Assembly: GCF_003790525.1 (NCBI RefSeq)
Contig: NZ_CP033635.1
Direction: 5' to 3' (one strand)
From: Escherichia coli
Lineage (GTDB): Bacteria; Pseudomonadota; Gammaproteobacteria; Enterobacterales; Enterobacteriaceae
DNA length: 64,000 bases
Shown: positions 9,690-16,310 of the stretch, piece by piece
Layout of the letters: each line of letters begins with the position of its first letter
Numbering within the stretch: position 1 is the first letter of the stretch
Program-made: the position numbers and the translations under genes
The notes under the pieces: model-generated
What the model was told of the DNA's origin: nothing
What the model saw: only the letters and a program-made list of their open reading frames with translations
Database searches by the model: none

Positions 9690-10850
9690 ATGGACGAAAA
9701 GAAACTTAAAGTCCTTGCGGCTGAACTGGCCAAAGGCCTTAAAACCGAAGCCGACCTCAACCAGTTTTCACGCATGTTGACAAAGCTTACCGTCGAAACG
9801 GCGCTCAATGCAGAACTGACTGACCATCTAGGTCATGAGAAAAATGCTCCTAAATCAGGCTCTAATACCCGTAATGGCTACTCGTCAAAAACGGTATTGT
9901 GCGATGATGGCGAGATCGAACTTAACACGCCGCGTGACCGTGAAAATACCTTCGAACCACAACTGGTGAAGAAAAATCAGACCCGCATTACCGGCATGGA
10001 CAACCAGATCCTGGCGCTGTATGCCAGAGGGATGACTACCCGCGAAATTACCTCAGCCTTCAAAGAAATGTACGACGCCGATGTCTCGCCCACGCTGATA
10101 TCCAAAGTGACCGATGCGGTTAAAGAACAGGTCTCTGAATGGCAAAACCGACCGTTGGATGCACTGTATCCCATTGTTTATCTTGACTGTATTGTGGTTA
10201 AGGTTCGTCACAGCGGGAGTGTCATTAACAAAGCGGTGTTCCTCGCGCTGGGCATCAATACCGACGGTCAGAAAGAGCTGCTGGATATGTGGCTGGCCGA
10301 AAATGAAGGTGCAAAGTTCTGGCTGAATGTACTGACGGAACTGAAAAATCGCGGCCTGAACGATATCCTTATCGCCTTCGTGGACGGCCTGAAAGGCTTC
10401 CCGGAAGCGATAAATAGCGTGTACCCGCAGACGCATATTCAGCTCTGCATCATCCATATGGTGCGCAACAGCCTGAAATTCGTGTCGTGGAAGGATTACA
10501 AAGCCGTCACCAGCGGGCTGAAAGCGGTATATCAGGCCCCGACAGAGGAAACGGCGTTGATGGCGTTGGATAAGTTTGCAGGCGTCTGGGATGAAAAATA
10601 CCCGCAAATCAGCAAGAGCTGGCGCACACACTGGGAAAATCTCAACACCTTCTTCGGTTACCCACCGGATATCCGCAAGGCCATCTACACGACGAATGCC
10701 ATCGAATCGCTGAACAGTGTCATTCGGCAGGCGATAAAGAAGCGCAAGGTGTTCCCAACGGACGACTCGGTGCGAAAAGTGATTTATCTGGCGATACAGT
10801 CGGCGTCAAAAAATGGAGTATGCCAATCCAGAACTGGCGGCTGGCAATGA
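9690..10850 (+). mobile_element. IS256-family (mutator-type) transposase gene, C-terminus frameshifted in an A6 run
   Basis: 386-aa ORF starting MDEKKLKVLAAELAKGLKTEADLNQFSRMLTKL... typical of IS256-family transposases; the expected C-terminal residues (KWSMPIQNWRLAMSRFIIEFGDRLSEHL) continue in the +1 frame after the A6 run at 10808-10813. Confidence 0.75.
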
Positions 10851-11213
10851 GCCGTTTTATTATCGAGTTCGGTGACCGCCTTAGCGAGCACCTTTAATAC
10901 GGCGGCAGTTACACAGAATTATTTACAGGGTCATTCTGAATTTAGTGCAGAATTAAAATATGTGTTCAAAATAATTTAATTCAGACAGCTTTTTATTTCA
11001 CTATGGCTATCCCAGAACAACCAGTACAAATAATAAAAGACATATCACAGCAACACTCCACACTGACAGCGCAAAAATAAATGCCGCCTTTGTTATCTTC
11101 ATATACAAGCAACCTGTCCTGATAATCACCAGCTCATGTTTTATTCTTAACCATTCGTCACAAATACAACAAAAAATAACAGCAGCAGCACCGATATCAC
11201 AATATAAGATACA

Positions 11214-11669
11214 TTATTCAACACCTGAATCCCCCGCCGCTTCTCTCCCCTTTATAAAACGCCCCTTCCGGAATCCAGACCGCTGCAGTGCACGACGAAG
11301 ATGACCGTATACCGTCTTGTCATTCTGCCCCGTCTCTTCTGTAATCTCCGCAATACTTAAACCTCTGTAATACCGGTTCAGTACCGCTCTGCGCTCTTCC
11401 AGCGTCAACACACCTCCGGCCGCTCTCAGATTCAGCATCGACTTATTCAGAATACAGCAGGCCTCTCCGGTAAAAAGAATACGAACAATATCTGTATACT
11501 CATCATCACAGAATACAAAATAATATCTGAATGACCTGCCTGACTGCACCCTTCTTCTGTCTGATATGGCATCTTCTATATATCTGATTCGACTGCTTAC
11601 GGTTCCAAATATCTCTCGCAGGGCTTTTTCAAAATAAATATCTCTCGTCGCCAGGATTATATCCAGCAT
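11214..11669 (-). CDS. small transcriptional regulator with C-terminal LuxR/sigma-70-region-4-like HTH
   Basis: 151-aa ORF; C-terminal LTLEERRAVLNRYYRGLSIAEITEETGQNDKTVYGHLRRALQ resembles a LuxR/sigma-r4 HTH; lies 62 bp downstream of the adhesin gene on the same strand. Confidence 0.45.
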   Translation of the reverse strand: MLDIILATRDIYFEKALREIFGTVSSRIRYIEDAISDRRRVQSGRSFRYYFVFCDDEYTDIVRILFTGEACCILNKSMLNLRAAGGVLTLEERRAVLNRYYRGLSIAEITEETGQNDKTVYGHLRRALQRSGFRKGRFIKGREAAGDSGVE

Positions 11670-11730
11670 CTCTGTACCTCATTATATCCCGGGGGACTCC
11701 CCCCGGGACAGATATCTAAATCCTGACCTG

Positions 11731-14698: not shown

Positions 14699-14699
14699 G

Positions 14700-15420
14700 G
14701 TTCTTTCATGGTCACAGTTAACCTTCATTGCTCCTGTTGCCAGTCCGTTCAGGTTTACCGTCACGGGAAGAACCCAAAGGACATGATCGATTTCGCTGCC
14801 GTGACTGTCATCGAGTGCTTCAGCTCACTTACCGTTACGAGGCCCGTAAACCGGGAGTTAAAGAGCAAATCACTGAAATGGCTTTCAACGGTGCCGGAGT
14901 TCGCGATACTGCCCGTACGCTGAAAATCGGCATTAATACTGTCATCCGGACTTTAAAAAACTCTCGCCACGAAGAATAACGTCATACCCGGTCGCTCATG
15001 CTGATATGGCTCTCATCTGCGAACTTGATGAGCAATGGAGTTTTGTCGGCAGTAAAGCGCGACAGCACTGGCTCTGGTACACGTACAACACGAAAACTGG
15101 TGGCGTTCTGGCCTACACTTTTGGCCTACGGACTGATTAAACCTGTCGTGAATTGCTGGCGCTGCTTGCCCTTTTACCATCGGTATGTTGACCACTGACG
15201 AATGGGGTAGTTACACCAGAGAGTTACCGAAGGAGAAGCATCTGACTGGTAAGATTTTTACTCAGCGCATTGAGCGCAACATCTACCTCTGAGAACCCGA
15301 ATCAAACGTCTGGCCCGCAGAACTATCTGTTTCTCGCGCTCTGTAGAACTTCATGAAAAAGTCATCGGTGCCTTTATCGAAAAATATATGTTCTACTAAT
15401 TGGAGTCACCACCTTCGTTT
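14700..15420 (+). mobile_element. IS1-family element remnant (insA-like and insB-like frames, both disrupted)
   Basis: Frames 14708-14923 and 14728-14979 together encode an InsA-like protein (zinc-finger-like N-terminus, then HTH ...GAGVRDTARTLKIGINTVIRTLKNS); the downstream frame (14998-) has InsB-like CELDEQWSFVGSKARQHWLWYTYN followed by stops. Confidence 0.55.
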
Positions 15421-15798
15421 GTTTAAAGAACCTGCTGGTCCTGCCATTAATATTACCTGCTGATTGCTTCACATCCGGATTCCTCGCACTGCGCGCGGGT
15501 TATTGTTTCGTTTTCGGCCACGGGGTCGCCAGGGCTCTGTTTGCAGGCCATGATGGCCTGACCTGTACTGTTTCTCAGGCACTGAGATGTCCGTTTACGC
15601 CATTTGTTCCCGGATATCCTTAACCTCTGACGTTTGTTCCCTGCCCCTCTGTCTGATAACGAATACGCTCACAACGCACAGTACTGAACAATACCGACAA
15701 CAACATGTCTTACATGAAATTCGCTGTAACATCCACCGGAAAACATTTTCAGATATCGGATGAGGTACTACTTCCATTGACAGCGCGAGGTAACAAAA

Positions 15799-16310
15799 TT
15801 GATGGTAACTCTGACCATTAACCGTAAACCGCAGGGTATTTTCAGTAAATCACCGGCAACGCCGCTGCAGGATAAAACGGACACAGCATACAAAATGAAG
15901 GCCGGTGACCAGATACCACAGTTGAACGAGAAACAGAAACCTGCTGATAAAACACCGTGGCGACATGACAAAACGCCAGAGCAAAAACCGTAAGCGCATT
16001 ATTCGTCTTGTGGAACTCTGGCCTGAGTCATTCAACCGGGAAAAAAACAAAACCACTTAAAGTGGGGATACCTGACGACCTGATACAGGATATCGCCATC
16101 CGAGAACTGGCGTTTGGCGCTGGTACATTACATGCAGCAGTGGCGTCTTATGTGCAGTCTCCGCGCTATTACCGTGCGTTAATAGCAGGTGGCGCCCGTT
16201 ACAACCTGAACGGTCAGCCGTGCGGGGAAGTGACACCACAGGAACAGAAAGAGGCAGAGACCCGTTTAATGATGCTGAATGACCGACGAAAAGACAGAAA
16301 ACCTCGTTGA
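15799..16310 (+). pseudogene. FinO/ProQ-domain RNA-chaperone gene disrupted by two frameshifts at A-runs
   Basis: Three consecutive frames: 15799-15993 (K/P/T-rich FinO-like N-terminus), the ATG-15965 frame (MTKRQSKNRKRIIRLVELWPESFNREKNK), and 16008-16310 (PLKVGIPDDLIQDIAIRELAFG...YYRALIAGGARYNLNGQPCGEVTPQEQKEAETRL), matching the ProQ/FinO core (ProQ: ERFPHCFS...RPLKIGIFQDLV...RVDLDGNPCGEL). Frame switches coincide with A5 (15983-15987) and A7 (16040-16046) runs. Confidence 0.55.

Follow-up and report, generated by a model that had tools for sequence, protein, structure and literature searches.

Two interrupted genes in the island

The window, by which we mean the whole 64,000-nucleotide stretch of Escherichia coli DNA that was analyzed (contig NZ_CP033635.1), includes an island that carries sit and aerobactin genes, a gene for a YadA-like adhesin and a CP4-like module. 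Two genes in this island, one for an IS256-family transposase and one for a ProQ/FinO-like protein, are interrupted by frame breaks, and the features discussed below are collected in Table 1. That such breaks bear on pseudogene annotation had been remarked on in an earlier note on this DNA, and PGAP already flags both genes as frameshifted in related genomes, in the case of the transposase at the same coordinates in SFE8 and DG341-1.

Table 1. Features of the island referred to in the text, with the evidence for each.
Feature	Coordinates	Strand	Evidence
ISEc39-like IS256-family insertion sequence	9617..10932	+	about 1316 bp; end-to-end alignment with the Nissle 1917 ISEc39 copy
Transposase pseudogene (IS256 family, ISEc39-like)	9690..10897	+	PGAP 'IS256 family transposase, frameshifted'
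A6 run, frame-breaking lesion of the transposase	10808..10813	+	1-base deletion, A7 to A6
AAAAAAC, IS1-type A6C motif	14955..14961	+	native programmed -1 frameshift site, no lesion; within a divergent, decayed IS1-like element (14708-15399)
ProQ/FinO-family pseudogene, two frame breaks	15802..16310	+	PGAP 'ProQ/FINO family protein, frameshifted'
CATG, true first FinO frame break	15964..15967	+	2-bp deletion, CATATG to CATG, relative to the intact P0005 gene (L006) and AR_0015
A5 run, wild-type length, no frame break	15983..15987	+	A5 in the intact 168-aa homologue (L006) and in 5/5 aligned relatives
A7 run, second FinO frame break	16041..16047	+	one base inserted; the in-frame allele has A6
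DUF4942 pseudogene, non-homopolymer counter-example	28727..29523	+	single T lost between 29352 and 29353

The ISEc39-like element is ~96.5% identical to the Nissle 1917 copy over its full length and has terminal inverted repeats of 25 nt (9623-9647 and 10904-10928). Its right boundary is confirmed by genomes that match the flank alone, from query position 194. The open frame of the transposase stops early, at 10850, and encodes 371 native residues and 15 out-of-frame ones (386 aa in all). As the earlier note had stated, it is at the A6 run that the frame is lost, and one A added to this run restores a 402-aa IS256-family transposase. The repaired translation matched both Pfam Transposase_mut (PF00872, E 4e-115) and NCBIfam transpos_IS256 (NF033543, E 2e-125), and the element has both a Mutator-type DDE transposase and terminal inverted repeats, the features of the IS256 family (ISEc39/IS1414 group). 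Conservation of the lost C-terminal tail, KKWSMPIQNW...FGDR, extends to the solved transposase of ISCth4 (structure 6XG8), with which it can be aligned up to chain residue 409 of 410. Transposase activity has presumably been lost from this copy.

The ProQ/FinO-like gene is left with open pieces of 63 aa (15802-15993) and 31 aa (15965-16060). No single open frame contains the ProQ/FinO domain (PF04352), which was recognizable only in the repaired translation (residues 64-167, E 2.9e-19). Intact homologues of 158-180 aa span 96-100% of that translation, and the gene is a pseudogene of the ProQ/FinO family.

Positions of the frame breaks

The earlier note had placed all three breaks in homopolymers of A. 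The A6, A5 and A7 runs that it listed are all present, and its assignment was borne out for the transposase A6 and the FinO A7 but not for the first break in the FinO-like gene. In-frame relatives have either GGGAAAAACC (OkiPb01705, AR_0015 and the locus L006) or GGGAAAAAAC (loci L009-L011 and IMT5155) at the position of the A7 run. The first break had been assigned to the A5 run, but intact homologues also carry A5. The lesion is instead the 2-bp deletion in CATATG, which precedes the A5 run by about 16-20 nt; here the intact 168-aa homologues (P0005, locus L006) have GCGACATATGAC and the window has GCGACATGAC. In the protein alignment, intact homologues continue without interruption across this position (...TPWRHMTKRQ...). 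Repair of the gene at the A5 run (A5 to A4) also yields a plausible protein, of 169 aa, but was ruled out because intact homologues place the break at the CATATG deletion. An A6 at the second break would restore just a 114-aa ORF, which starts after the 2-bp deletion.

One candidate for an intact ancestor, P0001 (168 aa, 96% identical), was set aside. It carries CATG, A4 and A6 in the FinO-like gene and comes from a single Logan contig that is also missing one C of a CCC run. Either a true compensatory allele or undercalling could account for it, and it was left out of the evidence.

Taken over the whole island, the association with A-runs is true of the listed sites only. The DUF4942 gene lost a lone T (GGATGGTCAC to GGATGGCAC), as alignment to the intact gene of CFT073 (product WP_001280441.1) reveals, and in Pfam profile coordinates the two frames join at this point. 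The overlap of the frames in the Pfam matches had hinted at an A5 run (29327-29331), which the CFT073 alignment ruled out. The DUF4942 frameshift allele occurs in 29 complete genomes. In iucD, no run longer than 3 lies in the interval bound to hold the frame change (about 390-443). A frame break beside an A-run need not, then, sit in the run, as both the first FinO break and DUF4942 illustrate.

The reverse also applies, in that an A-run at which the frame changes need not be a lesion. At the A6C motif of the IS1-like element, the reading shifts by -1 from the insA-like to the insB-like frame, and a naive homopolymer scan would list this native site as a lesion as well. The motif TTTAAAAAACTC is kept relative to IS1A despite an overall identity between the two elements of ~60%, a level too divergent for single indels to be read. 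Of the other IS remnants, the window's ISL3 copy resembles ISEc38 but lacks about 350 bp internally; the two ISL3 copies showed no similarity when compared with each other.

Shared alleles and the question of sequencing error

Allele counts were taken as exact matches among 5426 complete E. coli genomes. The native 81-mer spanning the transposase A6 was found in 65 of these, and the IS was present at this insertion site in an equal number, 65 genomes, in which the best identity to the A7 query was 99.7%, equivalent to one gap. None of the 65 had A7 at the site. The corresponding 82-mer with A7 was found in 209 genomes, and the top-listed copies are annotated as ISEc39 family transposases. By these counts, the A6 allele follows this one insertion site, with the same sequence context being A7 in 209 other genomes. 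For the FinO-like gene, the native 73-mer with CATG and A5 was found in about 369 complete genomes and the A7 allele in about 347; A6 was found in 1 (IMT5155).

The earlier note had pointed to homopolymer errors of the sequencing chemistry as a possible source of the breaks; if they were errors of the chemistry or of the assembly, the genes would really be intact. Two of the three breaks do fall within stretches of 6-7 A, a kind of site that 454, Ion Torrent and Nanopore data get wrong, and undercalling of such runs affects the same type of site and looks the same in one sequence. It also occurs within this very island: eight runs in the assembly L012 (GCA_027279515.1), those at 10808 and 16041 among them, fall short of the window's length by 1-2 bases, and on this comparison L012 clearly undercalls homopolymers. 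For this reason, L012 was not accepted as proof of a FinO A6 in the same context.

Nevertheless, we consider sequencing error a very improbable explanation for the window. Exact alleles are shared with independently sequenced complete genomes at both runs and at the first FinO break, which is a 2-bp deletion that involves no run. Moreover, a context-driven error of the chemistry could not, judging from the allele counts, give a transposase that is A6 at this site and A7 elsewhere. An artefact of this kind strikes a large number of runs together, also between genes, as seen in L012. In contrast, the window has no indels relative to DG341-1 over positions 1-19,878, intergenic runs included, and its backbone genes differ from those of DG341-1 by 0.2-7%. 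The earlier note had described the backbone genes as intact by K-12 lengths, and the DG341-1 annotation agrees with it, as all 52 non-pseudogene coding sequences run to their full length, without gaps or internal stops.

A scan of all runs of 6 or more for frame breaks, which the earlier note had proposed for the genome, was run here on the 64-kb window. Only 2 of the 66 runs coincide with frame breaks, both of them the A-runs already described. None of the 39 backbone runs of 6 or more breaks a frame, and neither do the runs of 8 (G8 at 3976, T8 at 54794 and 56213). The mechanical +1/-1 scan also flagged runs at 49370 and 59290, which are the junction of the adjacent genes ydjH and ydjI and the region upstream of yeaG, respectively, and are not lesions. 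Hence, the scatter of errors over many runs, intergenic and backbone runs among them, was not seen in the window. Because the exact run lengths recur in so many independently sequenced genomes, sequencing error is refuted by proxy, the run lengths being backed by identity with other assemblies. By this sharing of alleles, each of the three breaks is a genuine mutation, carried by E. coli genomes that number in the dozens to hundreds and were sequenced independently.

Proposed origin of the lesions and possible leakiness

It is highly probable, in our view, that the lesions are real and heritable and that they abolish the function of two dispensable genes on an island gained by horizontal transfer. 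Replication slippage would have shortened the transposase run from A7 to A6 and lengthened the run in the FinO-like gene from A6 to A7, in each case at the single longest A-run of the gene. The FinO-like A6 apparently arose before the A7 insertion, via a C-to-A substitution that lengthened an A5C run. This order (A5C to A6 to A7) is suggested mainly by L009-L011, because A6 is rare (among complete genomes, IMT5155 only) and L012 undercalls. Loss of 2 bp from the short repeat CATATG would have divided the FinO-like gene into pieces of 63 aa and 114 aa, the latter with the whole FinO domain, and the later A7 insertion would have cut the 114-aa piece to 31 aa. The alleles would have become fixed and then been inherited along with the island. 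The positions of the lesions, the run lengths of relatives and the sharing of alleles were observed directly, and we infer the slippage mechanism, the order of events and the loss of activity.

Slipped-strand mutation in mobile DNA had been raised in the earlier note, and it is supported for the transposase A6 and the FinO A7, though not the CATG deletion, which lies outside any run. The lesions are similar to the Streisinger-type run indels that give rise to bacterial pseudogenes, with a gain or loss of one base in the longest run, dispensable island or IS genes, and fixed, inherited alleles. They do not differ from them in kind, although in one of the three lesions here 2 bp were lost from a dinucleotide repeat. 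That the breaks fell in A-runs by coincidence, with indels striking at random in genes that were already decaying, seems to us very improbable. It would be in keeping with the lesions outside of runs (the single T of DUF4942, the 2 bp of the FinO-like gene and the iucD interval). However, the affected runs are the sole runs of 6 or more in their genes, where they make up 6 of 1208 nt (0.5%) and 7 of 509 nt (1.4%), and by our own arithmetic the probability of two random indels both hitting them is roughly 7e-5. The placement of the two indels is far from random, and such runs are known hot spots, with indel rates in E. coli that climb exponentially with homopolymer length (PMC8510543).

A further consideration is whether the A-runs could be switches, as in phase variation, or leaky sites at which ribosomal or transcriptional slippage yields some full-length protein. 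The deletion leaves the transposase with TC-A-AAA-AAT in the zero frame at 10806-10814, and the resulting A_AAA_AAU, a slippery heptamer of the form X_XXY_YYZ in the correct phase, resembles the A_AAA_AAC of IS1. A -1 ribosomal slip at this heptamer would bring back the native C-terminus. There are precedents for such slippage, as the -1 frameshift of IS1 is driven by A6C (PMC12428005) and rescue of single-base deletions at 25-60% has been described for C-AAA-AAA in the pDEST17 vector (PMC1851650). The likeness to the IS1 programmed frameshift (insA/insB to InsAB'), of which the motif at 14955-14961 is a real example, extends to an A6 tract followed by a pyrimidine within an IS transposase gene. 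Unlike IS1, the ISEc39 family is normally one uninterrupted A7 ORF, and A6 was found at one insertion site only. A two-frame arrangement was not found to be kept across copies of the element, and as the 209 A7 copies are single ORFs, frameshifting is no family trait of ISEc39. Since A6 matches and genomes with the IS at this site are equal in number, and A7 is absent from the latter, there is no sign of switching or of A6 copies elsewhere, and hence none of transposition. The 87 nt downstream of the A6 site have a predicted fold of -26.2 kcal/mol (z = -1.83), and 6 of 200 shuffles fold equally well.

Phase-variable contingency loci with homopolymeric tracts occur in Neisseria, Haemophilus and Campylobacter, and here too the length of a mononucleotide run sets the frame. 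Unlike those loci, the tracts here are short, at 6-7 bases. Run length is monomorphic at the IS locus (65 genomes) and almost so at the FinO site (about 347 A7 versus 1 A6 among complete genomes). In addition, the two genes differ in what an in-frame run would give: A7 yields the full transposase, whereas restoration of the FinO run would leave the upstream 2-bp deletion in place, and so only the 114-aa ORF. We regard switching or leaky runs as very unlikely. To the same slight degree, the 'dead' ISEc39-like copy might trickle full-length transposase via -1 frameshifting, as an accidental frameshift-attenuated IS, and slippage at a low level at the FinO A7 could leak small amounts of a protein with the FinO domain. 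By their distribution, the alleles are fixed and inherited, and the tracts are not actively switching.

Both genes are ordinary decayed island pseudogenes, with fixed slippage and deletion lesions; the phenomenon is already known and implies no new biology. For annotation, both should be kept as pseudogenes, and their A-runs should not be "polished" to intact lengths. Spurious intact ORFs can arise in error-prone assemblies like L012 and find their way into protein databases. The L012 copy of the 114-aa FinO ORF (P0021) is probably one of these, and P0001 is possibly another.

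The island and its nearest relative

The window, which is E. coli DNA, consists of an acquired island followed by chromosomal backbone that extends from ynjB as far as cdgI. The nearest complete genome was that of DG341-1, which differed from positions 1–19,878 by 18 substitutions and no indels; the first indel, at 19,879, falls in an intergenic stretch that is divergent. Because of this near-identity, the PGAP pseudogene calls of DG341-1 transfer directly to the window (subtracting 12,000 from coordinates of its record). Both the transposase gene and the FinO-like gene are already annotated by PGAP as frameshifted pseudogenes in related genomes. 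Identity to DG341-1 was 99.4–100% in island coding sequences versus 92.9–99.8% in backbone genes (ynjF 92.9%, ydjE 96.7%), and from this contrast the island is common to different chromosomal backgrounds. The YadA-like gene, which encodes a trimeric-autotransporter adhesin, contains 2.2 copies of a 99-nt tandem repeat (93% identity), and its annotated length varied among sampled strains (1542 nt in DG341-1, 1641 nt in SFE8).

Features of the window, with the order of the island elements
Feature	Island order	Position	Strand
Acquired island		~1–29,600
iucABCD aerobactin genes, MFS transporter gene	1
iucD		332–1665	-
ISL3 element, decayed (pseudogene)	2	7665–8849	+
IS256-family element	3	~9617–10932
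Inverted repeats of the IS256-family element		9623–9647 / 10904–10928
Transposase ORF, start and premature stop		9690, 10850
astA/EAST1-like remnant (putative)		10414–10521	+
Transposase A6		10808–10813
Sigma-like gene, YadA-like adhesin gene	4
GC-rich palindrome		11686–11706
YadA-like gene		11731–13272
Tandem repeat in YadA-like gene		12299–12511	-
Transketolase fragment		14472–14648
IS1-like remnant	5	14708–15399	+
A6C, IS1 frameshift motif		14955–14961
ProQ/FinO-family (FinO-like) gene	6	15802–16310
FinO-like 2-bp deletion		15964–15967
FinO-like A5		15983–15987
FinO-like A7		16041–16047
YagK/YfjJ and AlpA genes	7
CP4-like module with antirestriction and YeeU/CbtA genes	8
DUF4942 gene		28727–29523	+
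DUF4942 lost T		29352/29353
Backbone, ynjB to cdgI		29,689–64,000

The IS256-family transposase

The earlier note had placed all three frame breaks of the two genes in runs of adenine. For the transposase this was confirmed: the frame switches at TCAAAAAATGG, and one added A restores a 402-aa protein that matches Pfam Transposase_mut (E 4e-115) and NCBIfam transpos_IS256 (E 2e-125). Alleles were counted as exact matches in a set of 5426 complete E. coli genomes. The A7 82-mer of this site matched 209 records, the top-listed of which bear the annotation ISEc39 family transposase, and the native A6 81-mer matched 65. When the A7 version was joined to the unique right-hand flank, exactly 65 records spanned the junction, with a top identity of 99.7%, which corresponds to one gap; the IS is therefore present at this insertion site in 65 genomes, with A7 in none of them. 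No run-length polymorphism was found among these 65 genomes and, the two counts being equal, nothing pointed to A6 copies inserted elsewhere.

The 31 residues lost, KKWSMPIQNWRLAMSRFIIEFGDRLSEHL, align to the C-terminal end of 6XG8, the solved structure of the ISCth4 transposase (through chain residue 409/410). The lesion therefore deletes a conserved part of the protein, and we infer that this ISEc39-like copy is inactive. The mutated site is an in-phase A_AAA_AAT heptamer at which a -1 ribosomal slip would restore the native frame, and A-rich sites capable of such slippage have been described (PMC1851650; PMC12428005). Leaky expression by this route is nevertheless very improbable, as the fold downstream of the heptamer was unremarkable (z = -1.83) and the A6 copy shows no sign of ever having spread.

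An alternative frame of the transposase gene contains a putative astA/EAST1-like remnant, RRRIFSSASSIWCATA*NSCRGRITKPSPA. It lacks a start codon, is interrupted by an internal stop, and is embedded in the transposase gene in the arrangement of IS1414. Decay through transposase mutations is reported to be common in IS1414-group elements (PMC12585946). In Nissle 1917, the ISEc39 copy (L013, 1422–2629) carries the A7 form here, but its frame is broken at a different point, where one A is missing from TGAACTGG (corresponding to window 9724). This IS type was inactivated there independently, and not in any long run.

The FinO-like gene

The coding sequence of the FinO-like gene passes through three frames in succession. 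Its repaired translation matches PF04352 at residues 64–167 and has many intact homologues of 158–180 aa, covering 96–100% of its length. In the protein alignment these homologues run uninterrupted through ...TPWRHMTKRQRKNRKR..., and the first frame change therefore precedes MTKRQ and does not lie at the A5 run, where it had been placed. In the DNA alignment, the locus of an intact 168-aa homologue (L006) reads GCGACATATGAC then A5 and the window GCGACATGAC then A5; the lesion behind the first break is therefore a 2-bp deletion, and the A5 is of normal length. The native 73-mer at this lesion was exact in ~369 complete genomes. The second break does lie at the A7 run: the window has GGGAAAAAAAC, and in-frame alleles have GGGAAAAACC (OkiPb01705, AR_0015, L006) or GGGAAAAAAC (IMT5155 and the relatives L009–L011). 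Run length was almost invariant here, as ~347 complete genomes matched the A7 form exactly and a single one matched the A6 80-mer. The A-run observation is thus correct, though ordinary, for two of the three sites; the third break was mislocated.

The likely order of events begins with a full-length gene of ~168 aa. The 2-bp deletion would then have split it into two overlapping ORFs of 63 and 114 aa, the longer of which kept the FinO domain whole, a C-to-A substitution would have created A6, and a +1 slip from A6 to A7 would have reduced the product to a 31-aa stump.

Sequencing error, chance, and breaks outside runs

That the breaks are sequencing errors can be set aside. The lesion alleles are shared by dozens to hundreds of independently assembled genomes, sampled in many countries and from many hosts, and the same 81-nt context has A7 at other loci (209 genomes), A6 tracking this insertion site. 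DG341-1 and the window show 0 indels over 19.8 kb despite 0.2–7% difference between backbone genes. Only the transposase A6 and FinO A7 break a frame among the 66 runs of at least 6 in the window; no frame is broken at any of the 39 backbone runs or at the runs of 8.

True homopolymer error is seen, in contrast, in the same island of GCA_027279515.1 (L012), which, aligned over window 9529–19893, is shorter by 1–2 bases at 10808, 11695, 11699, 13786, 14010, 16041, 17813 and 18867. These eight homopolymers include both A-run sites, and the 114-aa FinO ORF (P0021 cluster) is spuriously restored, which illustrates how homopolymer undercalling feeds "intact" proteins into databases. The G5 and C6 runs of a perfect palindrome between the sigma-like and YadA-like genes, CCCGGGGGACTCCCCCCGGG, which looks like a terminator, are among those shortened. 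A 168-aa "intact" FinO-like ORF (P0001) is also present in the Logan contig ERR10499703 (L008, 393–899; aligned to window 15633–16657). It combines the 2-bp deletion with A4 for A5 (a net change of -3), has A6 at the position of the second break, and represents either a genuine compensatory A5-run slip or an undercalling artefact; the contig also lacks one C of CCC at window 16633.

In both genes the affected run is the sole run of at least 6, and by our arithmetic the probability that two random indels both hit those runs is ~7e-5. Their placement fits the behaviour of E. coli indel rates, which are known to rise exponentially as runs lengthen (PMC8510543). The A-run rule is not universal within the island. 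Compared with its intact CFT073 counterpart, the DUF4942 gene is out of frame through a single lost T (GGATGGTCAC to GGATGGCAC), ~20 nt past an A5 run, an allele found in 29 complete genomes. In iucD, the longest run in the frame-change interval is at most 3, and the allele is common in E. coli. PGAP flags the gene as frameshifted towards the 3' end, and its open frame encodes 426 aa, ending ...WRSGT*. Across E. coli, the commonest allele here (1453 records, 95–99% identity) has the same length, and SCU-387, the only carrier inspected, is likewise flagged. The flag is probably a reference-model mismatch and not an island-specific lesion.

The A6C run is the native programmed frameshift motif of IS1. 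The IS1-family remnant itself is very divergent (~60% identity to IS1A) and keeps the TTTAAAAAACTC frameshift motif, with additional frameshifts and internal stops. The transketolase fragment adjoining it suggests that the IS1-like element inserted in a sugar-utilisation operon of which L009–L011 have an intact copy. The frameshifted ISL3-family pseudogene is ISEc38-like (~88% identity) and lacks ~350 bp kept in other E. coli copies.
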